Source: Alphaproteobacteria bacterium (GTDB lineage: Bacteria; Pseudomonadota; Alphaproteobacteria; MPNO01). From it: a stretch of DNA of 64,000 nt. The stretch's first letter is position 1. Every line of letters starts with the position of its first letter. The DNA is taken from contig OZ219865.1 in assembly GCA_964291675.2 (NCBI GenBank), positions 64,001-128,000 of the forward strand, read 5' to 3'. A model generated the notes under the pieces. The model was not told the DNA's origin. It made no database searches and saw nothing but the letters and a program-made list of their open reading frames with translations. Positions 12,826-32,920 of this stretch are shown here, in pieces. The position numbers and the translations under genes were made by a program.

Positions 12826-12827
12826 CC

Positions 12828-15816: not shown

Positions 15817-15867
15817 CCGGGCACGCCCCCGGCGGATTTCCCCGGCTCGCGCCCGCCGGGCGGCGGA

Positions 15868-15896
15868 TTGACACCCGCCGGACGGCTCCCGATCAT
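15868..15896 (+). promoter_or_regulatory. Putative sigma70 promoter for the OCD-TauE-TauE operon
   Basis: TTGACA-N17-GATCAT, 40 nt upstream of the ATG at 15936. Confidence 0.5.
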
Positions 15897-15935
15897 CGCG
15901 CCCGCGCCCGTTCCAACCGCCGGAAGGCTGCCGTC

Positions 15936-17003
15936 ATGAGCGTCCTGCTGCTGCGCCCGGCGGATCTCCAGGGCCTGGTCACGATGGCCGAAGCGATCGA
16001 GGTCATCGAACAGGGCTACCGCGAGGCGGCCGCTTTTCCGGTGATCAACGCGCCCCGTCGGCGCGTCCATTCGCCCTCCGGCGTCCGGGTCAGCAACTTC
16101 CCGGGCGGGGTGCACGGGCTCGGCGTGATCGGCGCGCAGACCCGGGCCGAGCTGGTCGCCCAGACCGAGACCAACCAGAGCTACGGCTTCCGCGGCCCGC
16201 CGGTGCATGTGCTGAGCGACTCGGCGACCGGGGAGCTGCTCGCCATACTGATCGGCGAGATCGACGAGAAGACGCTCGGCCCGACCAGCCTGATGGCGTT
16301 CCGCACCGCGGCGGCGAGCGGCGTCGGGTTCCGCCACCTGGTGCGCCGGGACGCGCGCATCGCCGGGCTGTTCGGCTCGGCCGGGCAGGCGGCCAACCAG
16401 CTCCTCGCCCTGTTGACGGTGCGCGATATCGAGCGGGTCAAGCTCTACAGCCGCGATGCGGAGAACCGGCGCCGCTTCGCCGCCCGATACGGCGCCAGGT
16501 TCGGCGTCGAGATCGAGCCCGTCGCCGCGCCGCGCGATGCCGTCGAGGGCGTCGATGCGATCGTCGTTGCGACCAACACCAACGTTCCCGTCTTCGACGG
16601 CGACTGGCTGGCGCCGGGCCAGCACGTCACCGGCATCGTCGGCTCCAACATCCAGCTCGTCGAAGGCGGGTTCCTCAAGCGCCGGCGCCGCGAGATCGAC
16701 GACCGCACCGCCCGGCGCGCCGACGTGATCGTCGCCAATTTGCGCGAGTCCGTGCTGTCGGAGCAGCAGGGCGACCTGTTCGAGCCCATCGAGCGCGGGC
16801 TGATCCGCGCCGAGGACATTCTCGATCTCGGCGACGTGGCAGCGGGACACGTGCCCGGGCGGACCTCGCGCCGACAGATCACCTATCACAAGAACAACAA
16901 CGGCACCGGCGCGTCCGAGCTCGCCCTGGCCGGGCTGGCGTACCGGCTCGCCCGGGCGGCCGGGCGCGGGGTCGAGATCGACCTCGAACCCGTGACCGTC
17001 TGA
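15936..17003 (+). CDS. Ornithine cyclodeaminase/mu-crystallin family protein
   Basis: MAFRTAAASGVG, GLFGSAGQA, GDWLAPGQHV, GRTSRRQIT; start MSVLLL. Confidence 0.88.
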   Translation: MSVLLLRPADLQGLVTMAEAIEVIEQGYREAAAFPVINAPRRRVHSPSGVRVSNFPGGVHGLGVIGAQTRAELVAQTETNQSYGFRGPPVHVLSDSATGELLAILIGEIDEKTLGPTSLMAFRTAAASGVGFRHLVRRDARIAGLFGSAGQAANQLLALLTVRDIERVKLYSRDAENRRRFAARYGARFGVEIEPVAAPRDAVEGVDAIVVATNTNVPVFDGDWLAPGQHVTGIVGSNIQLVEGGFLKRRRREIDDRTARRADVIVANLRESVLSEQQGDLFEPIERGLIRAEDILDLGDVAAGHVPGRTSRRQITYHKNNNGTGASELALAGLAYRLARAAGRGVEIDLEPVTV

Positions 17004-17029
17004 CCTCCGGCACCCGAGCCTGCCGGCCC

Positions 17030-17770
17030 ATGCCGGGTCTCGATCTCGACGCGTGGCAGGCAGCGGCGGTGCTGCTGTCGGGCACGGTGGCGGGTGCCTT
17101 GCGCGGCTTCTCGGGTTTCGGCGCGGCGCTGGTGCTGGCGCCGGTGGTCAGCCTGATCGTCGGCGCCCATGTCGCGGTCCCGGCCATCATGCTCTCGATG
17201 TTCGTCACCACGGCGCAGCTCATCCCGACGACCTGGCGCCACGTCCGGTGGTCGGACCAGCTCGCCCTGTCGCTGTCCGGCTGCATCGGGGTGCCGGCGG
17301 GGGTGGCGGTGCTGATCCATCTCGATCCCGAGACGATGCGCCGCTCCATCTCCGTCATCACCGTCCTGCTCGCCCTGTTCCTGCTGACCGGGTGGCGCAC
17401 CGGCCATCGGTCAAGCCGCGTCGGGGCGGTGGCGATGGGAGGGCTCGGCGGCGTGCTGTCGGGCTCCACCTCGCTCGGCGGCCCGCCGGTGGTCGCCTAT
17501 CTGCTGGCCGGGCCGGGCAGCGCGGCGCAGACGCGGGCGAGCCTGCTCTACTATTTCGCCTTCACCCAGATGGCGGCCCTGGTCGTGTACTGGCTCGGCG
17601 GGCTGATGAGCTGGGAGGTGGCGGTCGCCGCCGCGGTCGTCGCGCCGTCGCTCGTGGTCGGGGCCTGGATCGGGACCAGGCTGTTCCACCTGGCCAGCGA
17701 ACGGACGTTCCGCCGGGTGGCGCTGGCCATCCTGCTGCTGGTCGGCGTTTCGACCTTCTTCGCCCGATGA
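17030..17770 (+). CDS. TauE/SafE sulfite exporter family protein
   Basis: RGFSGFGAAL, SLGGPPVVAY, ~8 TM. Confidence 0.9.
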   Translation: MPGLDLDAWQAAAVLLSGTVAGALRGFSGFGAALVLAPVVSLIVGAHVAVPAIMLSMFVTTAQLIPTTWRHVRWSDQLALSLSGCIGVPAGVAVLIHLDPETMRRSISVITVLLALFLLTGWRTGHRSSRVGAVAMGGLGGVLSGSTSLGGPPVVAYLLAGPGSAAQTRASLLYYFAFTQMAALVVYWLGGLMSWEVAVAAAVVAPSLVVGAWIGTRLFHLASERTFRRVALAILLLVGVSTFFAR

Positions 17771-18507
17771 TGCCGCTCGGCCTCGACGTCTGGGAGGTCG
17801 CGCTGGTGGCGACGGCCTTCGCCGCATCCGGCATCGTCCGGGGGTTCGGCGGCGGGATCGGCGCGAATTTCCTCACCGCGCCGGTGCTCGCCCTGCTGGT
17901 CGGACCGCGCGAGGCGGTGCCGATCGTCATGCTGCTCAACATGGTCGGCAACCTCCAGCTCATACCGCAGACCCTGCCCTCGGTGAACTGGCGGGATGGC
18001 TGGCCGCTCTTCTTCTTCCCCATACTGACGGTGCCGCTCGGCGGCTGGCTCCTGTTCACCGTCGACGAGGACGTGATGCGCCGCGCGATCGCGGCGGCGG
18101 CGCTCGCATTCTCGCTCCTGCTGCTCAGCGGCTGGCGCTATCGCGGAGGCCAGCGGATGGGCCTCTCCATCGCCACCGGATCGGTGTCGGGCGTCCTCGT
18201 GGGCTCGGTCTCGCTCGGCGGCCCGCCGGCCTTCCTCTATCTGCTGGCGGGCTCCGGCGACGCCGCGACCAACCGGGCGCAGTTCGTGATGTTCGGTACC
18301 ACCGCCGGGCTCGCCGCGCTGGTCATGTTCACCGCTGCCGGCGCCTATCGGCTCGAAACCGTCCTGTTCGCCGCCTTCCTGACGATCCCGGCGGCGCTCG
18401 GCATCTGGCTCGGCTCGATCCTGTTCCGCCGGGCCAGCGAAGATTTGTTCAGGCGGGTCTGCCTGTGGGGGCTGGTCGCGGTCTCGCTCTGCGTGCTGGT
18501 GCTGTAG
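17767..18507 (+). CDS. TauE/SafE sulfite exporter family protein (tandem paralog)
   Basis: RGFGGGIGA, SLGGPPAFLY; ATG overlaps the upstream TGA. Confidence 0.88.
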   Translation: MMPLGLDVWEVALVATAFAASGIVRGFGGGIGANFLTAPVLALLVGPREAVPIVMLLNMVGNLQLIPQTLPSVNWRDGWPLFFFPILTVPLGGWLLFTVDEDVMRRAIAAAALAFSLLLLSGWRYRGGQRMGLSIATGSVSGVLVGSVSLGGPPAFLYLLAGSGDAATNRAQFVMFGTTAGLAALVMFTAAGAYRLETVLFAAFLTIPAALGIWLGSILFRRASEDLFRRVCLWGLVAVSLCVLVL

Positions 18508-19274
18508 CCCGGATTCTCGCCACGGACACGGTCAGGCCCGTCCTCACGTACGGTTCGGATATTTCAACAGGCTGGAAGAAGACGCGAGGGTTTGCTCATC
18601 GGCTACGCAGCCAAGAGGTTCCCGGTCGGCCCGCGCTTCACCGCTTCGACTTCGCGTCGTACGCATCTCGACCGGATCGCCGGCCCGAGATCCCGCGACC
18701 GACGGCGCGCATCTCGACCGCATCGAACACGGACGCGAGCGCTTGCCGACCGCGGTGTCCCGGATGGAGCGGTTCTCCTCGGCCTGCCGCACGCAGTCCC
18801 GGCCCCGCGACAGGGGGCCCTCGTGAAGCGGAACGTCCCGGCAAATGCCCGGTGCCAGTGGAGCATTATAGCCCGCCGCTCATCGGTTCCCGGTACGGGA
18901 GTACCGGCTCCTCACCGTTCCGATCCAGCGCGGACAGGCGTTACCGCTGCTGGCCTGTCGACGATGTCCGTCCCGTCCGCCTCGTTGACCGCACGCCAAG
19001 CGGCGCGATAGGTTGTCGGTCTCTCATGTTGCCCGTTCTGCATTGCACGCCCGACAGCGGACAAGGAGCGAGAGGCAGACATGCATCGGAACGGCAGCAA
19101 GCCAGCTCGCGGACGTTGCCCTCCGAGACTTGCCAGGTCCGTGAGATTGGCCCGAGACTACCGTATGTTGCGTCTCGCAACCCTTGCGGATGGCACGACG
19201 ACAGCGCCCGTCGGTTGCGCTGCGGGGAGGCCGCCCGTGCTCTTCCGACCGGGGCAGTTCGGCGGGGACTGTCG

Positions 19275-20111
19275 ATGACACAAGAACATACCATTATCGA
19301 CACCGATTTGCGCCGGGCCTATGAGACAGACGGTGTCGTATGCCTGCGCAGGGCTTTCGATCCGCACTGGCTGGGGGTCGCTGCCGACGCCATCGAACAG
19401 GGGCGGGCGAATCCCGGCCCGATGTACATCGACTATTCGGCGGAAACGAAGCCCGGCACCTACTGCACGGATTTCTGGATCTGGCAGCATGTGCCGGCGA
19501 TGCGCGCCTTCATTTTCGAATCGCCGGCGGCCGGGTTCGCGGGTGAGATCATGGACGTCAGCGCCGTGATGCTGGTGACGGACAACTGGTTGGTCCGGGA
19601 AGCCGGGGCGGTCAACCGGGCGCCTTGGCATCATGACGGGCCCTATTTCGACCTGGACGGGAAATGGTGCGTGCTGTGGATGGCGCTTGAACCGGTTGGC
19701 CCCGGCGAAGGCATCGTGTTCCTGAAAGGCTCCCACAGGTGGGGGAGGCTCTTCATGCCGGAGAGCTTCGCAGGCACCGGCCCGAAAGCCGAAGTGCGGG
19801 AACCTTACGAGCGAACGCCCGATTTCGCGCAACAACCGGGGCATTGCGTCCCGGTCGAGTACGCCCTGGAACCGGGCGATTGCGTGGTATTCGATGCTCT
19901 GACCGTCCATGGCGCTCCCGACGCCAAACCGCAAGAGCACAACAGCCGGCGCCTCACCGTTCGCTTTGCGGCAGGCGACGCCATCTATCGACGCCGGGGC
20001 TCCTGGACCCGTGAGATGACGGACTATTTGGAGCGTGAGTACGGCCTGACCGAAGGCGGGTCCTACCGCTGCGATCTGCTACCCATTCTGTGGTCGAGGG
20101 AAGGCGTCTAG
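19275..20111 (+). CDS. Phytanoyl-CoA dioxygenase (PhyH) family Fe(II)/2OG dioxygenase
   Basis: APWHHDGPYF (HxD), FLKGSHRWG, LEPGDCVVFDALTVHGA, RRLTVRF; start MTQEHT. Confidence 0.9.
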   Translation: MTQEHTIIDTDLRRAYETDGVVCLRRAFDPHWLGVAADAIEQGRANPGPMYIDYSAETKPGTYCTDFWIWQHVPAMRAFIFESPAAGFAGEIMDVSAVMLVTDNWLVREAGAVNRAPWHHDGPYFDLDGKWCVLWMALEPVGPGEGIVFLKGSHRWGRLFMPESFAGTGPKAEVREPYERTPDFAQQPGHCVPVEYALEPGDCVVFDALTVHGAPDAKPQEHNSRRLTVRFAAGDAIYRRRGSWTREMTDYLEREYGLTEGGSYRCDLLPILWSREGV

Positions 20112-20549
20112 CTGTCCCGCATGCAAAGTTCGTATAGTTATGACTGGCGGGGCCTTGCGGATCGAGCGCAGATTGTGCTGCCGGCGTCCAGGAGGCTGAC
20201 CGACGTGCAGATCGGAAGCGCGCTGGGGGTCACCGACCGGACCGCCGGGAAGTGGCGCAACCGGTTCGCCGAACACCGTCTTGACGGGCTTGACGACGAG
20301 CCGCGCGCCGGCCGTCCGCGGCGCACCGGTGACGATGCCGTGGCGGAGGCGGTGCGCAAGACGCTGGAGGACGAGCCCCGCGACATCGTCGGGCCGTACG
20401 TGGACCCGCCGCAGCACGCCATGGTGCTTTGCGTGGACGGGAAGTCGCAAGTTCAGGCCCTGGACCGCAGCCAGCCGCCGTTGCCTCAGGACACCCGAAA
20501 CCACTGCCGCAAACACTTCATAACGCTACGAACTTCGGAATCAGGACAG
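20112..20549 (+). mobile_element. Internally deleted IS630-family element (MITE-like, both ends kept)
   Basis: Imperfect TIRs CTGTCCcGcaTgCaAAGTTCGTAtaGTTATGA / CTGTCCtGatTcCgAAGTTCGTAgcGTTATGA next to TA; remnant peptide GKWRNRF..GLDDEPRAGRPR, RDIVG.Y.DPP, VLCVDGKSQVQALDR, RTSESGQ. Confidence 0.85.
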
Positions 20550-20584
20550 TAGCGGCTGACTTCGGGCTGAGTTCGAGTTCTTTC

Positions 20585-21577
20585 TCAGGTGTCGATGGCG
20601 AGACCGGCGCCGGCGTCGCGGGCGACGGCATAGGCATGGGTGGCGATGGCGGTGTCCTGGACACCGGTGCCGGTCAGGTCGCAGACCGTAATCTCGCCAT
20701 CGCCGACCCGCCCGGGGCTGCGTCCCGCGCAGATATCGCCGAGCTCGGTCACGGAAAACCGGTTGTCGACCGCACCGGCGGCCAAAGCCGTCCGCAATTC
20801 GCCCAGCGCCTCCGACTGCCCGCGCCGATCGCAGACGAATCGATCCGCGCGGGCGAGAACGGCCGGTTCGAGCTCGTTCTTTTCTCCGGAGTCCGAGCCC
20901 ATGGCGGTGATGTGCTGACCCGGCCTGAGCCACGCCGCATAGACCAGCGGTGCGCGCGCCGGGGTGGTCGTGAGCACGACGCGCGATTCGGCGACGCAGG
21001 CCTCGGCGCTCGGCGCGACATCGACGGAGCAGCCGAGCGCCGCGCTCATCCTGGCGGCGTAGGCGGCCGCCTTTCGCGCATCCCGCGTCCAGACCAGAAC
21101 GCGATCGAAATCGCGGACCAGATTGAGCGCCCGAAGCTGGAGATCGGCCTGGACGCCCGCGCCGATCACCCCCACCGTGCCGACGCGCGCCGGCGCCAGA
21201 TGTTTCGCCGCGACGGCGCCCGCCGCCGCCGTCCGCACATCGGTCAGGTAGCCGTTGTCGAGCAGGACCGCCTGAACCACCCCGGTCGCCGCGCTGAACA
21301 GGACCATCAGTCCGTTGAGGCTCGGCAACCCCAGCCGCGGATTGTCGAAGAAGCCGGGGCTGACCTTGACGGCAAACCCGTCGAGGCCGGGCACGTAGGC
21401 GGTCTTGACATCGACCTCGCCGTTGGCCGCCTCGATGGCCATGGAAAGCACCGGCGGCATCACGACCGCGCCGCCGGCGAGAGCCGCGAACGCCTCTTCC
21501 ACGATCGAGACCGCTTCGGCGTCGACGGCGACCAGGGCGCGCAAATCGGATTCGGTCAGGACGGCGATTCGCGCCAT
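20585..21577 (-). CDS. eutC: Ectoine utilization cyclodeaminase-family protein EutC
   Basis: GEVDVKTAYVPG, KVSPGFFDNPRLGLPSLNGLM, DLTGTGVQDTAIA. Confidence 0.88.
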   Translation of the reverse strand: MARIAVLTESDLRALVAVDAEAVSIVEEAFAALAGGAVVMPPVLSMAIEAANGEVDVKTAYVPGLDGFAVKVSPGFFDNPRLGLPSLNGLMVLFSAATGVVQAVLLDNGYLTDVRTAAAGAVAAKHLAPARVGTVGVIGAGVQADLQLRALNLVRDFDRVLVWTRDARKAAAYAARMSAALGCSVDVAPSAEACVAESRVVLTTTPARAPLVYAAWLRPGQHITAMGSDSGEKNELEPAVLARADRFVCDRRGQSEALGELRTALAAGAVDNRFSVTELGDICAGRSPGRVGDGEITVCDLTGTGVQDTAIATHAYAVARDAGAGLAIDT

Positions 21578-21593
21578 TTCGGCGGCGGTCCGC

Positions 21594-22406
21594 TCAGCCG
21601 GCTTCGAGGACGGCGCTCAGGAATTGTCGCGTTCGTGCGCTTTGCGGGTCGCCGAACAGCCGGTCGGGCGGTCCCTGCTCTTCAATCTTTCCGTCGTAGA
21701 AAAAGCACACGCGATCGGAGATTTCCCGGGCGAAGCCCATCTGGTGGGTGACCATGAGCATGGTCAGATTGTGTTCGGTATTGAGCAGCCGGATGACGTT
21801 CAGCACTTCGCCGATCACTTCCGGGTCGAGCGCCGAAGTGACTTCGTCCAGCAGCATCACTTTCGGGCGCATGGCGAGAGCCCGGGCTATGGCGACGCGC
21901 TGCTGCTGGCCGCCGGACAGGCGCGAGGGATGCTGGTCCTGCTTGTCGGCCAGCCCCACCAGCTCCAGCAGTTCTATGGCCCTTTCCTCCGCTTCCTGCT
22001 TGGGCAGGCCGAGAACCTGGATCGGCGCTTCGATGCAGTTTTGCAGCGCCGTCATGTGGGGAAACAGGTTGAAGTGCTGGAACACCATGCCGATATTCGT
22101 CCGCATCCGGCGAAGATGCCCGGGGGACGCGCGAACCAGCCGGTCCCCTTCGGCCATATGGGTGAGCGGCTCCCTGTCGACGTAGATTGCACCTTCGTCG
22201 ATTTCCTCAAGCGTCATCAGCATGCGCAGAACGGTCGTCTTGCCCGAGCCCGACGGCCCGATGATCGACACCATCTCGTTTGCGGCAACATCGAGATCGA
22301 GCGCGTCCAGAACGGTCAGGGAGCCGTACCGCTTGGTTACGGCGGCGAACCGCACCATGGGGACATCCTCGCCTTCGAGCTGTAACGGCAGGTTGTTTTC
22401 AGTCAT
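21594..22406 (-). CDS. ehuA: Ectoine/hydroxyectoine ABC ATP-binding protein EhuA
   Basis: GPSGSGKTTVLRMLMTLE, LSGGQQQRVAIARALAMRP, LDEVTSALDPE. Confidence 0.88.
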   Translation of the reverse strand: MTENNLPLQLEGEDVPMVRFAAVTKRYGSLTVLDALDLDVAANEMVSIIGPSGSGKTTVLRMLMTLEEIDEGAIYVDREPLTHMAEGDRLVRASPGHLRRMRTNIGMVFQHFNLFPHMTALQNCIEAPIQVLGLPKQEAEERAIELLELVGLADKQDQHPSRLSGGQQQRVAIARALAMRPKVMLLDEVTSALDPEVIGEVLNVIRLLNTEHNLTMLMVTHQMGFAREISDRVCFFYDGKIEEQGPPDRLFGDPQSARTRQFLSAVLEAG

Positions 22407-22425
22407 CGTGCTCGCCTGCGGATAG

Positions 22426-23097
22426 TTACGATGTCATGCCGAGACGCCGCTTCACCCAGGCTTCGAATTGTCGAAGTCCTCCGGCGGTCGGCAGCGAAAT
22501 AATCAGGAAAATTATGCCCACCAGGGTGTAGGGCTCCAGGTAACGATAGGTCTCCGAGCCCAGCGCGCCGGCCACATGCATCAGCTCCGCCACCCCGATG
22601 ACCGAGAGCATCGGCGTATCCTTGAATATGCCGACAAGGTAGTTTCCCATGCCCGGGAGCGCAGCCGGCAGGGCCTGCGGAATGATGATCCGCGAGTAGG
22701 TCCGGCGCATGCTGAGATTGAGCGCGCGGCAAGCCTCCCACTGGCCCTTCGGAATGCTCTCGATCCCGGCGCGATACACCTCGGAGAGATAGCTCGCGTA
22801 GTGCAGGCCGATCGCGATCATGCCCGCGGTCCAGGGCGACAGGCGGATGCCGAATTGCGGCGCGACGTAGAAAACGAAGAAAATCTGGAGCACCAGCGGA
22901 GTCGAGCGGATAAACTCGACGGATTCCCGAACGCCCAGGGTGAGCGGCTTGTACCGGGTGCGCTGGCCCAGTGCGAACATCAGACCGACGACAAGCGCGA
23001 TCAGATAGCCGATCCCGGCGGCGAGCAGCGTGTTTAGCGTGGCCTCGATCAGCCGCGGCAGGATTTCGAAAGTAAAGTCCCAACGCCAGTCGAACAT
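22426..23097 (-). CDS. ehuD: Ectoine ABC permease EhuD
   Basis: W.WDF N-terminus, EFIRSTPLVLQ, GLHYASYLSEVYRAGI, GNYLVGIFKDTP. Confidence 0.85.
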   Translation of the reverse strand: MFDWRWDFTFEILPRLIEATLNTLLAAGIGYLIALVVGLMFALGQRTRYKPLTLGVRESVEFIRSTPLVLQIFFVFYVAPQFGIRLSPWTAGMIAIGLHYASYLSEVYRAGIESIPKGQWEACRALNLSMRRTYSRIIIPQALPAALPGMGNYLVGIFKDTPMLSVIGVAELMHVAGALGSETYRYLEPYTLVGIIFLIISLPTAGGLRQFEAWVKRRLGMTS

Positions 23098-23110
23098 CGC
23101 GCCGCCTCCC

Positions 23111-23776
23111 CTATGCCCGGCCCAGCTTGCGGGCCATGACCAGTTCGAGCCGCCGCATTCCCGGCGTGATCATGTATCGTGCCATGATGTAATAGATGAT
23201 CAGCGCGATGCCGAACGCTTCGATCGACAGGAATGTCGATCCGTTGATCTGCTTCGCTTCGAACATGAGGTCGCCGACCGAGATCAAGGCGACGAGGGCC
23301 GTCCCTTTCAGGAGCTCGATCAGCAGGTTGCCCCATTGCGGCAGCATGATGAGAACCGCCTGGGGCAGGATGATCCGGCGCATTTTGCTTGCAGGCGGAA
23401 TGTTCAGGGCCAGGGCCGCCTCGTACTGGCCGCGCGGCACGGACTGGATCGCGCCGCGGACCACCTCCGCACCGTAGGCGCCGAGATTCATTCCGACGGC
23501 CACGAACCCCGCGGTGAATTTCTCCAGGGGCAGGCCGAACAGCGGAAGAACGAAAAATATCCAGTACAGCTGCACCAGCAATGAGGTGCCGCGAAAAATT
23601 TCGATGTAGACGATCGCGATGCCCCTGACGACCAGATTCCGGGCGAGCCGCATCAATCCCATCAGCAGGGCAATGGCGATCGCAAGCAGCGACGCCAGCA
23701 CCGTCTGCTGCGCGGTTATCCAGGCCCCGGAGGCGAACCGCGGCCAGTATTCCAGAAGGAAATCAAGGAATGTCAT
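23111..23776 (-). CDS. ehuC: Ectoine ABC permease EhuC
   Basis: YIEIFRGTSLLVQLYW, AYGAEVVRGAI, GNLLIELLKGTAL. Confidence 0.87.
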   Translation of the reverse strand: MTFLDFLLEYWPRFASGAWITAQQTVLASLLAIAIALLMGLMRLARNLVVRGIAIVYIEIFRGTSLLVQLYWIFFVLPLFGLPLEKFTAGFVAVGMNLGAYGAEVVRGAIQSVPRGQYEAALALNIPPASKMRRIILPQAVLIMLPQWGNLLIELLKGTALVALISVGDLMFEAKQINGSTFLSIEAFGIALIIYYIMARYMITPGMRRLELVMARKLGRA

Positions 23777-23836
23777 CGGCGCAATGCCCCCCGCGCAGCC
23801 GCATCCTGCGCCCGCGCTGCAAATTCAGCCGATGCC

Positions 23837-23886
23837 GGAATCCGGCTGCCGGCGCTGGACGCGCAATCGCCGGCAGCCGGAATTCC
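23837..23886. other. Strong intercistronic stem-loop between ehuB and ehuC
   Basis: GGAATCCGGCTGCCGGCG-N13-CGCCGGCAGCCGGAATTCC; such hairpins commonly stabilise binding-protein mRNA. Confidence 0.65.
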
Positions 23887-23894
23887 ATGAACCG

Positions 23895-24746
23895 TTACCG
23901 GTTTGCGCATGCGTGTGCCGTGGTCGCGTCGCCAGGCAGTTGCGCGTTGGTGTAACCGTAGGGCTTCACGGCCGCCAACATCTCGTCCGAGCCGAGATAG
24001 CCCTTGAGCGCGGCATTGAACGCCTTCTGCATGGCCCCGTCCGACTGGCGGAACGCGATGCCCACCCAGTTCAGGGTCCATTTCGGCAGCTTCGACGGAT
24101 CGGTCACGGATACCGCTCCGGCCGATTTCTTGGCCAGGTTCAGCGCCGTGAAGTAGGTGACGCCGCCGGCCGCCGCACGTTCTGCCTTGACTGCCGCCAG
24201 TATCTCGGTCGGCCCGGGAACCTGCATGATCTTGTCGGCCGCAATGCCCTGCTTCTTCGCCACGCCGATGATGTTGTACCCGGCGCCGGTGACCAGCGTC
24301 GCCCCGAGGCGCTTGATGTCGGCATAGGTCTGGATGCCCTGGGGGTTGCCCTTGGCGACGATGAAGGCATCGCCGAACACGCCGATCGGGTCGGAGAACA
24401 GCACGTTCTCGCAGCGCTTCTTCAGGATATACATCCCGCCGGTGATGACATCGAACCGGTTCGCCCTGAGGCCGGGGATCAGCCCGCCCCATTCGGTCAC
24501 CACCGGCGAGATCGTCTTGGCGCCCATTTTGTTGAGGACGCCGACGGCGATGGCGTTGGCGAAGCCGAGCGGCTTCTTGTTCTCGCCCGGATAGGCCCAC
24601 GGCACCTCGTTGGCAAAACCGATGCGAACCGGCTTTCCGGCCTTCAGATCGGCAAGCATATCCGCCTGGGCCGCCGGGACCGCAACGGCAGTTGCAAGTA
24701 TTGCGGCGGACAGGCCGACGATCCGTTTCCTCCAATTCCAATTCAT
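23895..24746 (-). CDS. ehuB: Ectoine/hydroxyectoine ABC substrate-binding protein EhuB-like
   Basis: Signal peptide, RIGFANEVPWAY, TEWGGLIPGL..RFDVITGGMYI..RC. Confidence 0.8.
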   Translation of the reverse strand: MNWNWRKRIVGLSAAILATAVAVPAAQADMLADLKAGKPVRIGFANEVPWAYPGENKKPLGFANAIAVGVLNKMGAKTISPVVTEWGGLIPGLRANRFDVITGGMYILKKRCENVLFSDPIGVFGDAFIVAKGNPQGIQTYADIKRLGATLVTGAGYNIIGVAKKQGIAADKIMQVPGPTEILAAVKAERAAAGGVTYFTALNLAKKSAGAVSVTDPSKLPKWTLNWVGIAFRQSDGAMQKAFNAALKGYLGSDEMLAAVKPYGYTNAQLPGDATTAHACANR

Positions 24747-24847
24747 CGTTTACCTCCTTCGGGTTTTCCGGTGAGTCGCTTCACCGGTGCGCCGGTCCGG
24801 CGGACATGCCGCGAACCGGCGGAACGTCGGACCGCGCCGGCATGCCG

Positions 24848-26026
24848 TCATGCTGCCGACCTCAGACCGACCATCCAATTGCGCAGCCGGTCCAGAAACC
24901 CGAGACAGGCCTCCAGCTGGCTGATCGCAATGAATTCGTCCGGCTTGTGCGCCTGTTCGATGCTTCCGGGTCCGAACAGGACTGTGGACATCTCCGAGTT
25001 CTGGAAATGTCCTGCGTCCGACCCGAATGACGCCACCCGGTCGGAGTTCAACCCGGTCAGGTGTCGGATCAGATCGATCGCCTCCATGTTCCGGCCCTGG
25101 TCGAGTCCCGGCAGCGCGGCGAATATTTCGGTGTCGATTTCCGCGGCGGGACAATGTCGCCGCATTTCCGGCAGGAGATGGCGCGCGGCAAACCTGCGAA
25201 CTCGTTCAATGACGGCCTCGCCGTCGACCCCCGGTAGCGGTCGCAGTTCCCAATCGAACGTGCAGTTGCCGGCGACGATATTTCGTGCGACGCCGCCCTC
25301 GATTGTGCCGACGCTGATCGTCGAATAGGGCGGATCGTATGGCGACTGGGCGTCCGCATCCTTTTCGAGTTCCCGCGCGACACGGCGAAGGAAGTCGATA
25401 TAGCGCGCGGCATACTCGATTGCGTTCACACCCTTCCGCGGATCGGACGCATGCGCTTCGAGACCGCGAATCGCGGTCGTCATCTCGAAGCCGCCCTTGT
25501 GTCCCGAAACGATCTGCATTTCGGTCGGCTCGCCGACAATGGCGATCGCCGGCGCGAACGGCTGTTCTTTCAGCCTGTCCAGCAGGATGGGGGCGCCGCA
25601 GCTGCCGATCTCTTCATCGAACGTGAAGGCCAGATGGAGCGGTCGCTCCAATTCCGACGACACCAAATCGGGCACTGCCGCCAGGGCGCACGCAATGAAC
25701 CCCTTCATGTCCGCCGTTCCGCGCCCGAACAGATATCCGTTCCGGCGGGTCATCTCGAAGGGTGGGGTCTTCCAGTCCTGCCCTGCAACCGGCACGACAT
25801 CGGTATGGCCCGACAGGACAATGCCGCCGTCGGTTTCCGGCCCGATGGTCGCAAAGAGATTGGCTTTCTCGCCCCGGTCGTCGCTGCTGAGCTGCACCGT
25901 CACGCCGAAGCGGTCCAGATAGGCGACGACAAAGTCGATCAGCTCGAGGTTGGAGGCGGCCGATACGGTTTCGAAGCCGACCAATTCGGCCAGCAGGTCA
26001 ATCGTCCGGTCCAGTCGCGCGGTCAT
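24848..26026 (-). CDS. ArgE-like M20 N-acetyl amino acid deacetylase
   Basis: LSGHTDVVPV, GRGTADMKGF, FDEEIG, GEPT, QAHKPDEF; start MTARLD overlaps the eutB stop. Confidence 0.9.
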   Translation of the reverse strand: MTARLDRTIDLLAELVGFETVSAASNLELIDFVVAYLDRFGVTVQLSSDDRGEKANLFATIGPETDGGIVLSGHTDVVPVAGQDWKTPPFEMTRRNGYLFGRGTADMKGFIACALAAVPDLVSSELERPLHLAFTFDEEIGSCGAPILLDRLKEQPFAPAIAIVGEPTEMQIVSGHKGGFEMTTAIRGLEAHASDPRKGVNAIEYAARYIDFLRRVARELEKDADAQSPYDPPYSTISVGTIEGGVARNIVAGNCTFDWELRPLPGVDGEAVIERVRRFAARHLLPEMRRHCPAAEIDTEIFAALPGLDQGRNMEAIDLIRHLTGLNSDRVASFGSDAGHFQNSEMSTVLFGPGSIEQAHKPDEFIAISQLEACLGFLDRLRNWMVGLRSAA

Positions 26027-27039
26027 CCGCAAAGTCCGTCGGTTTCCGGCCGATGCCGTTGCGCAATCTCTATCAGCCGGGCGCCATCGACGGCGTTGCC
26101 GGTCAGGACCAGCGCGATCCGGTCCCCCGGGTCGTTCCGGGGACGGTGCAAGAGGGCCGCGATCGGCGTCGCCGCCGCGCCTTCCAGGATCAGCCGCTCC
26201 CGCCAGAAGGCCCAGGCCATCGCACGAGCGATCTGCTCTTCGTCGACCAGCACAATGTCGTCGACCAGATCGCGAACCATGGCGAAGGTGTAACGGTTGT
26301 CCAGCAGGATGCCGCCCTGGAGGCTGTCCGCCAGGCTCTCGACTTCGGGAACGAGAACCGGATGCCCGGCCTGTTGACTGGCATGCATGGCCGCGCCGCG
26401 ATCCATGGAGACGCCGAGGATCCGGCAGTCCGGCCGATGCCGTTTGACCGCGAGGGCGATGCCCGAAATCAGTCCGCCGCCGCTCAACGGCACGATCACC
26501 GAATCGACTTCGTCCAGGTCGTCGACGATCTCCAGTCCGATCGTTCCCTGGCCGGCGATGACGTACCGGTCGTTGAACGGATCGATGACGGACAAACCCT
26601 CTTCGCGTACCAGGCGATGCGCGAGTTCGCCGGCTTCGTCCTGGGAGGCGCCGTGGATGCGCAACTCGCAGCCCGTCGCCGCGAGCGCCTCGATCTTGCC
26701 CGGCGTTACCTGTTCCGACACGCAGACCGTTGCCGGAATGCCGAGCCGACCGGCGACATGGGCGACGGCCCGTCCGTGATTCCCGGTCGAGTAGGTAACG
26801 ACGCCGCGCCGACGCGCTTCCTCGTCCAATGCGAGAATGGCGTTCGCGGCGCCGCGAACCTTGAAGGCGCCGGTATCCTGGAGCGTTTCGAGTTTCAAGA
26901 AGACGGCGGCGTCCGCGCGCCTGGACAAATCCGCCGACGGCAGAAGCGGCGTTCGCCGGGCAATTCCGCTGATCCGTTGCCGCGCGGTCTCCACGTCCGC
27001 CAGACCGATCGTGTCGGCCGCAGGCGCGACGCCGTCCAT
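26023..27039 (-). CDS. eutB: PLP-dependent threonine-dehydratase-like EutB
   Basis: LKLETLQDTGAFKVRGA, STGNHGRAVA, PLSGGGLISG, SLADSLQGGI. Confidence 0.85.
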   Translation of the reverse strand: MDGVAPAADTIGLADVETARQRISGIARRTPLLPSADLSRRADAAVFLKLETLQDTGAFKVRGAANAILALDEEARRRGVVTYSTGNHGRAVAHVAGRLGIPATVCVSEQVTPGKIEALAATGCELRIHGASQDEAGELAHRLVREEGLSVIDPFNDRYVIAGQGTIGLEIVDDLDEVDSVIVPLSGGGLISGIALAVKRHRPDCRILGVSMDRGAAMHASQQAGHPVLVPEVESLADSLQGGILLDNRYTFAMVRDLVDDIVLVDEEQIARAMAWAFWRERLILEGAAATPIAALLHRPRNDPGDRIALVLTGNAVDGARLIEIAQRHRPETDGLCG

Positions 27040-27242
27040 ACCTAGTTCTCGACCATTGCGCGATGCGTTGCCGCAGGCCGCCGGGCGCATTCGGCGGCCG
27101 GAAACGACACCCTGCAGGAGGCGCCCGCCATATCGACAACGGCGGCCGAGAAACCCATGCAACCTCCCTTCCATGCGATCGGGAACGGTAGCACGCGCCG
27201 ACCAGAGATACAATTCTCCGGTCGCCCGGACCTCCAGACCAA

Positions 27243-27312
27243 GACAATTGTCGCGTAATCCAGCCGAAATACAGTAGCCGCCTCCCGGCACGGGGCCTTA
27301 ATGATATATATC
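27243..27312. promoter_or_regulatory. Candidate operators in the divergent eutB/gntR intergenic region
   Basis: Perfect AT-rich palindromes GACAATTGTC (27243-52) and GATATATATC (27303-12) in a GC-rich background. Confidence 0.45.
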
Positions 27313-27497
27313 TGGGGAGCATGGACCGATGGCATGCCGGTCCGGGCGGCCGGTCTTGCGCAACGGCCGGCACGAACCCGGGGTGTGCCCGGCGCCGGGC
27401 CCTCGCACCGTCGCGCGGGACACGATCCGAGTCCGTGTCGGCGCCCGGTGGAGAGTCGTAAACTGGCCGCGCAGGCCCTGATCGAGAGCTTCCGTTC

Positions 27498-28265
27498 ATG
27501 TCCAACGAGCAAGCTGTTATCGACCTGATTTCCGGAGAGGAGGCAGAGCGGTTCGGCGACGCCCCCGCGGCGGAAACGCCTCGGGAGACGCCGTCGCGCC
27601 GCCGCTTTCGTGCCATTCACCGGCTGTTGCGACGCCGGATTGCCATGTTGGACTACCCACCCGGCCAGCGTCTCGACATCGATCGGCTGGCCGCCGAGCT
27701 GAACGTCAGCCGCACGCCGATCAGAAGCGTCCTCCAGCAGATGGAGTTCGAAGGGCTGGTCTCGACGCTGCATGGCGTCGGCACGACGGTGACCGCCATC
27801 GATACCGCCCATCTGCGAGAAGCGGTCGACCTTCGAACCCGACTCGCCGAACTGATCGGGGTTCTCAGCCCGCTTGCGCCCTCTTCGGAGGCGATCGGAT
27901 GGCTGCGAACCGCGCGGCAGGCCTGCGATGGTCTTTACGAAGATCGCGACATTCGCAAGTTTGCGGCCATCGACATGAGACTGCACGATGCGGTCTGCAC
28001 GGTGATCGGCAACTCGCTGCTGCTGAAGACCTACGACGACCTGTACTACCGCACCGCGCGCATGTGGTTCTATTTCCTGCCCAAACTCGACTGGCATCAG
28101 GAAATTGCGATTTTTGCGTCCGATATCGATCAGACCCGTAGCGCAATGATCCGCGGCGACACGCGCGCCGTCGGTTTTCTGGTCAGGAATGCCGTTTCCG
28201 CTGCCGTAATCCGCCTCGACGACCTGATCGCGCAGGCGGAGACCGACACTCTGGAACTCGGATGA
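27498..28265 (+). CDS. GntR/FCD family transcriptional regulator
   Basis: YPPGQRL..LAAELNVSRTPIRSVL HTH; FCD-type D.RLH...GN; no aminotransferase domain. Confidence 0.9.
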   Translation: MSNEQAVIDLISGEEAERFGDAPAAETPRETPSRRRFRAIHRLLRRRIAMLDYPPGQRLDIDRLAAELNVSRTPIRSVLQQMEFEGLVSTLHGVGTTVTAIDTAHLREAVDLRTRLAELIGVLSPLAPSSEAIGWLRTARQACDGLYEDRDIRKFAAIDMRLHDAVCTVIGNSLLLKTYDDLYYRTARMWFYFLPKLDWHQEIAIFASDIDQTRSAMIRGDTRAVGFLVRNAVSAAVIRLDDLIAQAETDTLELG

Positions 28266-29455
28266 GCAAATTCGGCGATTACGTCATTCCGTTTTCCTGC
28301 GACGAATACGCGGCCCGCGCCACGCGTGTCCGGTCCATGATGCGGGATCGCGACCTGGATTTGTTGATTTGTCAGGACCCGGCGAACATGTGTTGGCTGA
28401 CCGGTTACGACAGCTGGTCCTTCTATACGCCCCAGGCGGTCGTTCTCGCTGCGGCCGAGGACTGGTCGATCTGGTTCGGGCGGCCGCAAGACGCCCGGGC
28501 GGCAAGGCTCACGACAATTCTGCCCGACGACAGGATTGCCTGCTTCGACGAAGCGCTGGTCCATCACCCGGAGCGTCACCCGTTCGACGACCTATGCACC
28601 CTGCTGCGCCACCGCGGCTACGGACGGGCCCGGATCGCGGTCGAGATGGATGCGCACTACTTCACGGCTCGGGCGCACCGTCATCTGGTCCGGGGTTTGC
28701 CGGACGCGGCGTTCGAGGACAGCCGGGAACTGGTCAACTGGGCGAAGGCGGTCAAATCGGACGCCGAATTGACCTACATGCGCCACGCCGGGCGAATCTG
28801 CACGGCGGCTCTGGATGCAGCCCTCGCGGTCATGGCGCCGGGAGTGCCCGAGTCGAGGGTTGTCGCGGAGGTCTACAAATCGCAGACCGTCGGGGTGGAC
28901 GGCGTCAGCGGTGACTACACCAGCTTGTGCCCGCTGATTCAGGTCGGCGAAGGCACGAGCACACCGCACCTGACCTGGTCCGAGGCGCCCTTGCCCGACG
29001 ATACCCTCGTCATACTGGAAATCGCCGGCGCCCGGCGGCACTACACGGCGCCGATCGTGCGCACGATTCATCTCGGTCCGCCTCCGCAAGAGATCGCCGA
29101 CCTGGCGAAGGTCATCGTCGAAGGAGTCGATGCGGCGCTCGACATGGCGCGCCCCGGCGCGACCTGCGAGGAGGTCGAGGCTGTCTGGCAGAAGATTCTC
29201 AACCGTAACGGCTTCGAGAAGAAGAGCCGCGTCGGCTACTCCATCGGCCTTGCCTTCCCGCCCGATTGGGGCGAGCGCACGATGAGTCTGCGTCCGGGCG
29301 ATACGACCGTCCTGGAGAGCGGGATGTGTTTCCACTTCCAGTCCGGCGTCTGGCTGGACGCCTACGGCGCGGCGATTTCGGAGTCGTTTGTCGTCACGGA
29401 AGCGGGCGGGGAGCGCCTCTGCGACGTCGAGCGGCGGCTCATCGTCATCGACTGA
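28262..29455 (+). CDS. eutD: Ectoine hydrolase EutD/DoeA-like M24 family protein
   Basis: DPANMCWLTGYDSWSFY, ELVNWAKAVKS, HLTW, GYSIGLAFPPDWGERTMSLRPGD. Confidence 0.85.
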   Translation: MSKFGDYVIPFSCDEYAARATRVRSMMRDRDLDLLICQDPANMCWLTGYDSWSFYTPQAVVLAAAEDWSIWFGRPQDARAARLTTILPDDRIACFDEALVHHPERHPFDDLCTLLRHRGYGRARIAVEMDAHYFTARAHRHLVRGLPDAAFEDSRELVNWAKAVKSDAELTYMRHAGRICTAALDAALAVMAPGVPESRVVAEVYKSQTVGVDGVSGDYTSLCPLIQVGEGTSTPHLTWSEAPLPDDTLVILEIAGARRHYTAPIVRTIHLGPPPQEIADLAKVIVEGVDAALDMARPGATCEEVEAVWQKILNRNGFEKKSRVGYSIGLAFPPDWGERTMSLRPGDTTVLESGMCFHFQSGVWLDAYGAAISESFVVTEAGGERLCDVERRLIVID

Positions 29456-29502
29456 CCCGGGAAGCGGCGGCCAGATATCCCGGTCACCGGCCGTCCATCC
29501 GC

Positions 29503-30660
29503 CTATCGGACGATCAGCGTTTCAGGCGTCTCTTGCGTCAGGATCTCGCAGCCGGTGTCGGTCAAGACCGCCGTATTGGAAATGAAATAGTCGGCGCAGT
29601 CGGTGTCGGTGAACCAGGAGTGGAGATGGAACACCATGCCCGTCTTCAGCTCCATGCGCGAGTTCGGCGCAAGCCCCGTGACCATGCTCCCGCCTGTCCA
29701 GCTGGGCGGGAAGCCGATGCCGACCAGATATCCGCAATGGTGGCGCTCGTACCCAGCCAGGCCGCCCGCCCGCGCGACGCCGCGCCATGCGGCATAGGCG
29801 TCGCCGGCCGCAGCGCCCGGACGAATCGCCTCCCGAATCGCCTTCATCCCGCTAATCGCCAGCTCGACCGACCGGTCGATCCCTGCTGGCGGATTGCCGA
29901 GATAGACCAGGCGGCCCATGGGTGCGTGATAGCGTCGGACCGCCCCAGCAAGCTCCAGGAATACGGCGTCGCCGGCGCGGAACGTGTCGCCACGCCAGGT
30001 TGTGTGCTCTTCGCCGAGCCGGCTCGTCGGCCGGATGAAGGGGCCGAAGCCGGGATAATCGCTGCCGGCCAGGATCAGCGCCCGGTGGCAGGCGGCCGCC
30101 ACCTCGCTGTCGGTAGCGCCGTCGCGCACCGCTTCGATCGCAGCCAGCGTCCCCGCTTCCGCCGCCGCGGCGGCCTTGCGGGTGTGCTCGATCTCGAGCG
30201 GCGATTTGATCTGGCGCAGCGCATCCAGCAGCCCGGACGCATCGATCCAGTCAGCATCCGGCAGCTTCGCCTGCAGCGCTTCGGCAACGCGCGGCGTAAG
30301 AAACAGGCTGCGCTTTTCCAGACCCACGCGTGCGTCGGTCGCGCCGAGCTCCCGTAGCGCCCGGACGCCTGCGTCTGCGGGATCCTCATCGTCCGCGTAG
30401 CCGATATGGCGGGCGTTGCGCACCTGATTCTCGACGGTGATCCGCTCCATGGCGCGATTGATCAGGATCGACTCTCCGTCCTGCGTCAGCAGCAACAGGT
30501 GGCAAGCGAAGTAGCCCCAGTGGTCCAGGCCGGTCAGGTAGTAGATATTTTCCGGTACCCCGATAACGAGGCAGTCGAGGCCCGCCTTTCTCATGGCAGC
30601 GGTCGCGTTGTCGCGACGCCGGTCGAACTCGTTCGGCGGGAAAGCCGGTCGATGGTTCAT
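29503..30660 (-). CDS. Second M24 (creatinase/EutD-like) hydrolase
   Basis: PENIYYLTG, RQIKSPLEI, EHTTW, GYLVGIGFPPSW. Confidence 0.85.
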   Translation of the reverse strand: MNHRPAFPPNEFDRRRDNATAAMRKAGLDCLVIGVPENIYYLTGLDHWGYFACHLLLLTQDGESILINRAMERITVENQVRNARHIGYADDEDPADAGVRALRELGATDARVGLEKRSLFLTPRVAEALQAKLPDADWIDASGLLDALRQIKSPLEIEHTRKAAAAAEAGTLAAIEAVRDGATDSEVAAACHRALILAGSDYPGFGPFIRPTSRLGEEHTTWRGDTFRAGDAVFLELAGAVRRYHAPMGRLVYLGNPPAGIDRSVELAISGMKAIREAIRPGAAAGDAYAAWRGVARAGGLAGYERHHCGYLVGIGFPPSWTGGSMVTGLAPNSRMELKTGMVFHLHSWFTDTDCADYFISNTAVLTDTGCEILTQETPETLIVR

Positions 30661-30765
30661 CGCTCCTCCTCAGGGGAACGCGAGTATGCTGCGCTCGCCT
30701 CCAAGTCGTGCGACCGCCTTTCATACACGGGTCGAGACTTCAGCGCTTTGCACGGCTCCTGCACC

Positions 30766-31010
30766 CGACGAGCCGCGCTCCGGCCGTCCGCGGCGCATCG
30801 GTGACGATGCCGTGGCGGAGGCGGTGCGCAAGACGCTGGAGGACAAGACCCGCGACATCGTCGGGCTGTAGGTAGACCCGCCGCGGCACGCCATGGTGCT
30901 TTACGTGGACGGGAAGTCGCAAGTTCAGGCCCTGGACCGCAGCCAGCCGCTGTTGCCACCGCGTCCCGGCCAGGCCGGGCGGCGCTCTCCGCCCGACTGG
31001 CTGCGCGGAC
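30766..31010 (+). pseudogene. Second IS630 transposase remnant, direct repeat of 20294-20485
   Basis: 30766-30957 aligns ungapped to 20294-20485 (about 10 mismatches in 192 nt by eye); in-frame TAG; continues LLPPRPGQAGRR. Confidence 0.88.
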
Positions 31011-31112
31011 GCGCTTGCCCGATGTCGCCGCATCGCGCCGCGCGCCTCTCCCGCCCTGTCGGCCGGACGGCGCCGCGCCGGCCATGACGGTGGTGAGAAA
31101 TCCGGGCTGTGG

Positions 31113-31874
31113 CTAGCCGCCCTGCTCGGACATCGGGACGCCGGGCGGCAGCTCGAACAAATCGTCGGGCAGCGACTCGATATAGTCCACCGCCTCGTCG
31201 GTCGAGACGATGTCGGCGTATTTCGCGTTCATGTCGCAGAGATTGATCGCGTGGCTCGCCTCGGAGCGGTCGAAACACCCCTCCTCGACCAGGGTGGTGC
31301 GGAAATTCTCGCTGAACGCATCGAGCACCGAGGCGCGGACGCAGCCGCTCGTGGTCGTCCCCACCATGAGGATCGAATCGGCCTTGAGATTGGTCAGGAA
31401 GGACGATAGCGGGGTGCCGTGGAAGGCGCTCGGCTTGAGCTTCTCGATGACGATGTCCTGCGGCGCGGGTGCGATCTCCGGGTTGATCTGGTTGCCGTCG
31501 AGATTGGCGCGCGGATCGTCGGCCGCGCGCCATTCGCCGGTGCGGCTGTTCTTCCACGCCCAGGACCCGCGGTCCCAGCCGTCGCTCCGCATCGAGGCGG
31601 TGGTGTAGATGACCGGGATGCCCTTGGCCCGCCCGGCTTCCAGCAGGCGCTTGATGTAGCGCATCGACTCCCAGGCCTCCTCGCCGCAGGAGTTCGGCCA
31701 GGTCTTGACCGAATCGAGGATCGGCTCCGGCCGGTCGCCGGTAAAATTGTAGTTGACGTCGATCACCACGATCACCGGCCGTTCGCCGAACCCGGCCCGC
31801 TCGCCGTAGCCTGCCGCGCCGAACACCTGCTTGTCGCGTTCGGTGAGAAACCGGTTCCAGACGGGTTCCTTCAT
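31113..31874 (-). CDS. Isochorismatase/cysteine hydrolase (maleamate amidohydrolase-like)
   Basis: GFGERP.IVVIDV, EKLKPSAFHGT, GTTTSGCVRASVLDA, KYADIV. Confidence 0.9.
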   Translation of the reverse strand: MKEPVWNRFLTERDKQVFGAAGYGERAGFGERPVIVVIDVNYNFTGDRPEPILDSVKTWPNSCGEEAWESMRYIKRLLEAGRAKGIPVIYTTASMRSDGWDRGSWAWKNSRTGEWRAADDPRANLDGNQINPEIAPAPQDIVIEKLKPSAFHGTPLSSFLTNLKADSILMVGTTTSGCVRASVLDAFSENFRTTLVEEGCFDRSEASHAINLCDMNAKYADIVSTDEAVDYIESLPDDLFELPPGVPMSEQGG

Positions 31875-31981
31875 CGTCTTGCCTCCCCACGCCGGGTTGC
31901 GCCATCATGCGGCCAGAAGCCTAGGCGCGCGAAATCGCCCGCGCAAGCAGGCGGCGCGGACACCGACCGGAGGACACCGCA

Positions 31982-32422
31982 ATGAAGGTCGCCCGTCTCA
32001 ACCACATCAACATCCGCACCATGCAGATGGAGGAGACCAAGGACTTCTACGTCGAGAAGCTCGGCCTCGAAGTCGGCTTCCGCCCGCCCTTCGACGAGCA
32101 CGGCTACTGGCTCTATGCCGGCGACGTCGCGATCGTGCATCTGTCCTACAGCCGCGACGGCGAGCCGCGGCGCACCCACGCCGAGTCGATGGGCGACGGG
32201 CTCGACCATATCGGCCTCGACGCCGAGGGCTTCGACGCCATGCTCGACCATCTCAGGCGCACCGGGACGAGCTACAACAAGCGCCTCGTCGGCGGCGGCA
32301 CGATCGCCCAGATCTTCTTCCACGATCCGAACGGGGTGCTGGTCGAGCTCGCCTACGACGTCGCCGGCGAGGGCATCGATCCCGAGACCTTCGAGGAGGA
32401 GATGGAGGCGGTCCTGCAGTAG
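31982..32422 (+). CDS. VOC/glyoxalase family protein
   Basis: LNHINIRT, FYVEKLGL, GYWLY, LDHIG, QIFFHDPNGVLVEL. Confidence 0.9.
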   Translation: MKVARLNHINIRTMQMEETKDFYVEKLGLEVGFRPPFDEHGYWLYAGDVAIVHLSYSRDGEPRRTHAESMGDGLDHIGLDAEGFDAMLDHLRRTGTSYNKRLVGGGTIAQIFFHDPNGVLVELAYDVAGEGIDPETFEEEMEAVLQ

Positions 32423-32428
32423 CGGCCG

Positions 32429-32848: not shown

Positions 32849-32920
32849 TTCCGCTGCACCCCCGTTGGACTTTCGCCGCCAGGGTAGCATCCCGCCGCCG
32901 GCGCCGCGAACCGCGCCGGG

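Follow-up and report, generated by a model that had tools for sequence, protein, structure and literature searches.

How did a block of foreign DNA carrying a candidate osmolyte-catabolism module come to lie, without a transposase of its own, between the 3' ends of two convergent genes? The question is raised by a stretch of 64,000 nucleotides from an alphaproteobacterial genome (hereafter the window; assembly GCA_964291675.2, contig OZ219865.1, positions 64,001 to 128,000; source genome G000), in which a 12.6 kb segment (i.e. 18508-31106) separates a TauE gene from an isochorismatase gene. A first-pass annotation had described this segment as a cargo element with IS1380-like ends, mobilised in trans as one unit and delivering a whole catabolic pathway. 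The observation as a whole was confirmed, with termini, flanks, empty site and composition as described, and the interpretation was partly supported. The segment is a horizontally acquired mosaic island in the short spacer of the convergent TauE and isochorismatase genes; its insertion, IS1380-type ends, mosaic build and foreign composition, and the absence of a transposase, are all demonstrated. The reading favoured for its arrival, held tentatively at a little under an even chance, is that a miniature inverted-repeat transposable element (MITE) was loaded with passenger DNA and then transposed here as one transposase-less unit.

The boundaries of the island were examined by comparing positions 15500-33500 with 40 relatives, including 11 genomes of the same genus (G001-G011). 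The TauE/isochorismatase junction was without the segment in all 11 congeners, the matches to 15500-18509 and 31112-33500 lying 0-19 nt apart. Six of these junctions were read and consisted of the TauE stop, a spacer of 7-9 nt (including CCGTCCG, CCGAGTT and CCGGCCG) and the isochorismatase stop. A clean pre-insertion site, as proposed earlier, was thus found, but not in the form proposed, as removal of the element with one flanking repeat would leave no spacer. Matches to the cargo in the 11 congeners were at paralogue level only (~70%), except for MITE copies matching the right-end arm at 87-91%. Logan contigs of four public runs (X1, X2, X3 and X6) were additionally aligned at a likeness of at least 90%. 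Contigs of X1 and X3 joined 18509 to 31112 via GGCC alone, i.e. an empty site with the spacer CCGGCCG. The occupied left junction (18475-18627) was present in an X6 contig and the occupied right junction (30664-32493) in an X2 contig, both identical to the window. As X2 and X6 come from different studies, an assembly mis-join is unlikely; one of the two may be the source sample. Across the congeners and the X1 and X3 contigs, the presence/absence polymorphism falls exactly at the termini. The features at the two boundaries are as follows.

18502-18507, plus strand: left flank CTGTAG, in which 18505-18507 is the TauE stop TAG and GTAG agrees with the family target CTAG at 3/4 positions
18508-18532, plus strand: left IS1380-type terminal inverted repeat, with family likeness over ~25 nt only
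30976-31106, minus strand: MITE arm (positions 1-131 of 263), ending in the right terminal repeat
31107-31112, plus strand: right flank CTGTGG, followed by the isochorismatase stop (CTA, 31113-31115)

Composition changes with the insertion. The G+C content at third codon positions is 0.93 in the TauE gene and 0.91 in the isochorismatase gene as against 0.76-0.855 in the 11 cargo genes, in agreement with the lower G+C reported earlier for the interior.

The segment starts and stops exactly with inverted termini of 16/17 nt. The left terminus is CCCGGATTCTCGCCAC (18508-18523) and the right terminus, read as the reverse complement of 31090-31106, is CCCGGATTTCTCACCAC; they are one substitution and one gap of 1 nt apart, and the imperfect terminal inverted repeats of the first-pass annotation are therefore present. 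Cognate elements were located by a search with PF13701 (DDE_Tnp_1_4). Two such elements of G000 (C1:730582-732258 and 733211-734759) end in CTAG followed by CCCGGATTTCTCAAGGG and CCCGGACTTCTCAAACCCTGTCACG, respectively. The 13-nt terminus CCCGGATTTCTCA, preceded by CTAG, also bounds intact copies in G008 (n = 10, each encoding 474 amino acids) and one copy in G006. All 13 terminal nucleotides of the right end of the island are those of CCCGGATTTCTCA, the left terminal repeat of the two G000 elements and of the G008 and G006 copies; at the left end the agreement is 11/13, with one gap. By these terminal matches the island ends belong to the IS1380 type, as had been claimed. The peptide VVRNPG, previously taken as the tail of an IS1380 transposase gene at the right end, does occur in one frame but is simply the translated terminal repeat; the cognate transposase open reading frame (ORF) stops ~200 nt before the right terminal repeat, so that for this family the peptide is no sign of a transposase end.

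The family occurs as insertion sequences (ISs) of ~1.65 kb and as a 263-bp MITE. Both forms target CTAG, often on a stop codon. In addition to the IS1380 elements, G000 contains 12 full or nearly full MITE copies and about a dozen partial ones, and island positions 30976-31106 are 85-91% identical to ~20 other G000 places. The MITE is also abundant in the genus, with 48-50 matches in G010 for each of two MITE-bearing queries, nearly all of which were MITE copies. Its two arms, of 131 nt each, are inverted copies of each other at ~75% (C1 and C2 copies, e.g. C2:2351323-2351585). For two G000 MITE copies the empty site in the closest relative, G009, holds a single CTAG, indicating that the family duplicates the 4-bp CTAG. 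Flanking 4-mers are unequal in 8/10 tabulated full MITE copies, the ten copies differing at 0-2 positions, so decay of CTAG is common. Among other large units of G000 that may be bounded by solo ends, a candidate spans C2:2082624 to 2164374; its flanks lie on different contigs in G009, and the right flank is without a close match in G010.

The left end was assessed separately. Its score against the 25-nt family terminus is 12, and past nt 26 the alignment scores as shuffled sequence; a truncated IS1380 left end was rejected as the left arm on that basis. Genome-wide (4.8 Mb, both strands) there are 11,207 CCCG[GC]A sites, of which 57 score at least 12; these are mostly evident family ends. The chance of such a site lying within 2 nt of a boundary in the right orientation is ~3e-5, the empty sites providing an independent definition of that boundary. 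The minority variants G5 and A16 are common to the left and right ends, and such variants co-vary within single family copies, indicating that the left end is the partner of the right end and not a random look-alike. An IS630 origin of the ends and of the MITE, first suspected because of CTAG flanks and of the fragments of IS630 transposase in the interior, was rejected; full-length IS630 relatives end in CTA followed by GTGTCCTGATTC, whereas the PF13701 elements carry CCCGGATTTCTCA. The robust core of these results is that two partner termini, from a resident family of IS1380 type, precisely enclose foreign mosaic DNA at a stop-codon site resembling CTAG.

The interior was scanned for transposases by applying Pfam to 30 large ORFs and to 40 stop-to-stop frames in four intergenic gaps. 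No PF13701 domain, transposase catalytic domain or integrase was found in 18508-31106, in keeping with the earlier report of no intact transposase; only IS630-type helix-turn-helix N-terminal domains were recovered, and the genome-wide PF13701 matches all lie outside the island. The site-specific recombinase and tRNA/att-type target of an integrase-type genomic island are lacking, with no tRNA gene in 15000-35000 and no Rfam family in the region. The following features lie outside the metabolic cluster.

18533-18688, no strand assigned: left inner stretch, the final ~60 nt of which match only a tandem repeat array of G004
18689-18826, plus strand: remnant of a MobF-family conjugative relaxase gene (last 45 codons and stop)
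19275-20111, plus strand: PhyH-family dioxygenase gene (278 amino acids), matching no NCBIfam model
20108-20488, plus strand: IS630-type fragment A, with a CTAG target overlapping the PhyH stop, the left terminal repeat GCTGTCCCGCATGCAAAGTT and a transposase N-terminus
30766-30988, plus strand: IS630-type fragment B, with the same internal deletion as A, an in-frame TAG and homology to 'PGQAGRRS'

The transposase N-terminus of fragment A has an internal deletion of ~51 amino acids and is truncated after 'QPPLP'. Fragment B forms a 192-bp direct repeat with 20294-20485 (94.8% identity), so that A and B stand in direct orientation with the 10 kb ehu/eut cluster between them. Homology to IS630 extends as far as 30988 and that to the MITE already begins at 30976, and the resulting 13-nt overlap looks like a microhomology junction. 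The island is not flanked by two complete IS or MITE copies: its ends comprise 25 nt and 131 nt of the 263-nt MITE, and both IS630 copies are truncated. The relaxase remnant is 82% identical, at the protein level, to the C-terminus of a 1387-amino-acid paralogue on C2 that exceeds the NF041492 cut-off. Three MobF-type relaxase paralogues are present on C2 (1571640-, 1604680-1608843 and 3236051-3237688), with 3' ends 85-89% identical to 18694-18830, which suggests several integrated conjugative elements. As the PhyH gene has no NCBIfam match, it is not recognised as an ectoine hydroxylase. No homologue of 18508-18630 (~120 nt) was found in G000 or the 40 relatives. The G004 array (L055, G004:C2:515372-515923) consists of five tandem units ~126 bp apart, each 82-89% similar to 18630-18690.

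The metabolic cargo was characterised with family and equivalog models and comprises the following features.

20604-30671, no strand assigned: core cargo, colinear with a locus (L021) of a Paracoccaceae metagenome-assembled genome
20585-21577, minus strand: eutC-like cyclodeaminase gene (NF006141, 483 against a cut-off of 408; TIGR02992 EutC, 447, below the cut-off of 471.65)
21594-22406, minus strand: ehuA, ABC transporter ATPase (equivalog model)
22426-23097, minus strand: ehuD, transporter permease (equivalog model)
23111-23776, minus strand: ehuC, transporter permease (equivalog model)
23895-24746, minus strand: ehuB, substrate-binding protein (equivalog model)
24848-26026, minus strand: M20 ArgE-like deacylase gene (NF005710, above cut-off)
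26023-27039, minus strand: eutB, hydroxyectoine utilization dehydratase (NF005680, 423.6 against a cut-off of 413)
27498-28265, plus strand: GntR/FCD-family regulator gene
28262-29455, plus strand: M24 peptidase gene resembling DoeA/EutD (432 bits against a TIGR02993 cut-off of 613)
29503-30660, minus strand: second M24 peptidase gene, DoeA_2-like (228 bits against an NF038259 cut-off of 575)

EhuABCD all exceeded the cut-offs of their models (TIGR03005, TIGR03003, TIGR03004 and TIGR02995). Neither eutA nor eutE/doeB was found among the scanned island ORFs, which encode the ArgE-like M20 deacylase and the two M24 peptidases instead. The earlier claim of an osmolyte-catabolism cargo therefore stands as regards the ehu/eut genes, but that of a whole pathway does not, the canonical set being incomplete and the M24 proteins falling below the DoeA cut-offs. 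From this gene content, the cargo would serve the uptake and breakdown of an ectoine-type solute, and the substrate may be ectoine-like, not ectoine itself. No cargo protein has a paralogue of >47% identity elsewhere in G000, indicating that the island adds a capacity absent from the host. A native gene of the ornithine-cyclodeaminase family (15504-17003, plus strand) lies directly upstream of TauE; the host locus thus already contained a distant paralogue (29% identity) of the eutC-like gene of the island. On the other side, directly right of the isochorismatase gene, is a gene for a DnaE-type polymerase III alpha subunit (32921-36265, minus strand; PHP, NTPase, finger, HhH and OB domains), and the DNA after it (36000-37800) is of very high G+C content (0.76-0.82).

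Relatives of the cargo were sought by scanning one genome per species with the M20 protein. There were 33 loci, of which one was close, namely L021 (83% amino-acid identity), with nucleotide identities to the island of 85.4% over 20604-27046 and 83.3% over 27483-30671. Between eutB and the GntR gene, L021 has a third M24 gene, missing from the island, and L021 is without IS1380-type ends. A Tn3-family DUF4158 fragment stands beside the L021 cluster (reverse-complement 12192-13472 and 17243-18118 for these two L021 features), indicating that there as well the cluster is embedded in mobile DNA. In the four public runs, contigs matching cargo pieces at 97-99% identity end exactly where modules meet (before 18825, after 20114, before 20605), indicating that the PhyH module and the ehu/eut core exist separately in other contexts in the same communities. 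A plasmid source was also considered, but when 18400-31200 was compared by megablast with 72,556 plasmids, no match spanned as much as 6% of the query.

In the favoured reading, the cargo would have been pre-assembled from at least three modules, i.e. the relaxase-gene tail, the PhyH gene region and the ehuABCD/eutBC/M20/M24 cluster, the last of which is flanked by two copies of one defective IS630-type element. This passenger DNA would have been loaded, in another host, into a MITE-type element carried by a conjugative plasmid or an integrative element. An IS1380-family transposase acting in trans would have cut and pasted the loaded element into the G000 site, acting on the right through a complete 131-nt arm and on the left through no more than a minimal end of 25 nt. 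That the element moved as a unit, with its transposase provided in trans, is our inference; at present it is probably immobile. As a single event is needed, transposition as a unit is the more parsimonious course. It is consistent with the absence of a lone MITE from the TauE/isochorismatase site in every relative and every empty-site contig, and the relaxase remnant suggests assembly on a conjugative element rather than at the TauE site.

Several observations weigh against transposition as a unit, and the earlier claim of an element mobile as one unit in trans is unproven. Neither the unit nor its junctions turned up a second time in G000 or in the 40 relatives. Exact patterns for the 24-nt left end and the 26-nt IS630-B/MITE junction gave no match in metagenome contigs, a search that would miss diverged copies. 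Neither cognate IS copy of G000 is intact: in the numbering of the G008 protein, both have a frameshift between residues 318 and 331, and residues 129-168 are missing from the second copy as well. These two copies are adjacent (C1:730582-734759), share the frameshift and are the sole G000 elements of this kind with island-type ends; two intact IS1380-family transposases of G000 are 37-38% identical to the cognate protein and have other ends. The left end retains family sequence for 25 nt only, and the 13-nt overlap of IS630 fragment B with the MITE is typical of a deletion and fits decay in situ equally well.

The flanks constitute a further difficulty. The flanking 4-mers of the island, GTAG on the left and CTGT on the right, are identical at 1/4 positions, so that the CTAG duplication of the family is lacking, and this mismatch exceeds that of all ten tabulated full MITE copies. 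The 6-bp direct repeat of the first-pass annotation (CTGTAG/CTGTGG) is present, with 5/6 positions identical and a chance of ~0.005 for that single register, but it is not the duplication made by this family. A duplication of 5 bp is listed for IS1247 in Table 2 of PMC3281130. The family rule predicts (C/G)TAG on both sides, and the right-hand CTGT has an explanation under none of the models considered here; a 4-nt deletion in a hypothetical CTAG+CCGTGG could yield CTGTGG, an ad hoc solution.

The IS630 fragments, the half-MITE, the relaxase remnant and the mosaic build, all absent from the first-pass annotation, open a second route, assembly in situ. The 263-bp MITE would first have inserted at the CTAG-like TauE stop, and a conjugative plasmid or integrative element would then have recombined into it, either through a MITE copy on the incoming element or illegitimately. 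Most of the incoming element and the interior of the MITE would then have been lost by deletion, so that the MITE survives as its outer 25 nt (left) and its outer 131-nt arm (right) around 12.3 kb of remnant, the 12.6 kb never having transposed as a unit. This course, whose likelihood is real though well short of even, is a nearly equal rival of unit transposition. A relaxase-gene tail is the expected residue of a decayed conjugative element, the IS630-B/MITE overlap resembles a deletion scar, and the numerous MITE copies would provide homology for integration. A degraded duplication fits an older MITE insertion, unequal flanks being found in most full MITE copies as well. The lack of a second unit copy in G000, the relatives and the metagenome scans, and of an intact cognate transposase in G000, is likewise in its favour. 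However, two independent events at one 7-bp spacer and at least two deletions are required, no MITE is present at the site in the 11 congeners or in the X1 and X3 empty-site contigs, and both terminal repeats would have had to survive a loss of ~106 nt from within the MITE (132 to ~237).

Capture from one end, in the manner of ISEcp1 and ISPme1, is improbable. A transposase acting on the right end would have paired it with a look-alike situated 12.6 kb away in the donor and mobilised all the intervening DNA. Such behaviour is known of IS1380-family elements; the modules described in PMC3281130 consist of a single IS copy with adjacent DNA of various lengths, and the left end of the island matches the family over ~25 nt only, with one gap. 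The defining feature of such a capture, a transposase-bearing IS1380 element, is nevertheless absent from either end of the island; the match of the left end, with its shared G5 and A16, is better than a surrogate end requires; and use of the outer MITE repeat would leave a whole MITE at the right end, not half of one. That the termini were uninvolved, the island having entered by homologous exchange within a larger segment of a relative's DNA, or its junctions being a mis-join in metagenome assembly, is very improbable, for although G000 is 93.7% complete with 6.7% contamination and possibly metagenome-derived, flank identity to G010 is unequal (left 89% against right 94%) and a clean duplication is absent, family termini lie within 2 nt of both independent boundaries (at the chance of ~3e-5 for the left alone) and each junction recurs without change in a contig, the two runs concerned belonging to separate studies.

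The IS1380 family is best known for ISEcp1 and resistance genes and for the 'transposable modules' of Paracoccus. If the island did transpose as a unit, the family would also be moving whole metabolic modules without carrying its transposase. The general proposition that IS1380-derived MITE ends can carry >12 kb of passenger DNA, moved in trans, is possible but on balance doubtful. If it is true, the numerous MITE copies in these genomes would be potential loading platforms and gene vehicles beyond selfish repeats, and a catabolic mobile insertion cassette (MIC) would have brought an ectoine-type module from a conjugative element to the chromosome or chromid of marine host-associated Alphaproteobacteria. 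Even under loading in situ, the locus would be a clean and datable case in which a MITE end, IS630 fragments and a conjugative remnant together install a new capacity for solute utilisation where it does no harm, at the ends of genes. For annotation, CTAG-flanked CCCGSATTTC termini can be used to mark insertion boundaries in the genus.

A limited look at the literature on IS1380 and MITEs met no IS1380-type MITE with kilobases of cargo, which is a weak negative. ISEcp1 units and the ISPme1/IS1247a 'transposable modules' of Paracoccus resemble the island in belonging to the IS1380 family and in holding adjacent genes between an IS1380-type end and a second end. Transposable modules of this family, not restricted to resistance genes, are known in Alphaproteobacteria (PMC3281130). 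These units differ in that a complete IS with its transposase stands at one end and the other end is weakly similar, whereas the island has no IS1380 transposase and both of its ends are of the family type. In the TIME-COMP elements of the Tn3 family, as described in PMC4133298, miniature elements likewise flank extra DNA and are moved by a transposase in trans. They consist of two complete miniature elements, are <4 kb and have duplications of 5-6 bp in AT-rich DNA (PMC4133298). The island, in contrast, has half a MITE and a bare terminal repeat at a CTAG-like target.

As regards the cargo, the ehuABCD-eutABCDE cluster of the Sinorhizobium meliloti type encodes ectoine/hydroxyectoine uptake and catabolism. 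The island is alike in ehuA, ehuB, ehuC, ehuD and eutB, all above equivalog cut-offs, and in its eutC-like cyclodeaminase. It differs in that neither eutA nor eutE/doeB was found and in having instead an ArgE-like M20 gene and, with scores below the DoeA cut-offs, two M24 genes.

The IS231-derived MICs of Bacillus cereus also contain passenger genes between the terminal inverted repeats of an IS family, have no transposase of their own and are presumed to be mobile in trans (PMC3281130, PMC4133298). They differ from the island, whose ends are of the IS1380 type and not of IS231 (IS4 family) and are unequal (25 nt against a 131-nt MITE arm), which has no intact duplication and of which no second copy was found. 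Described MICs are of a few kilobases, and the 12.6 kb island is larger. In mode of working, MICs and MITE-bounded composites are the closest to the island (PMC3281130, PMC4133298), a rather unexceptional example of genes gained through mobile DNA, of a mobile-insertion-cassette-like kind.

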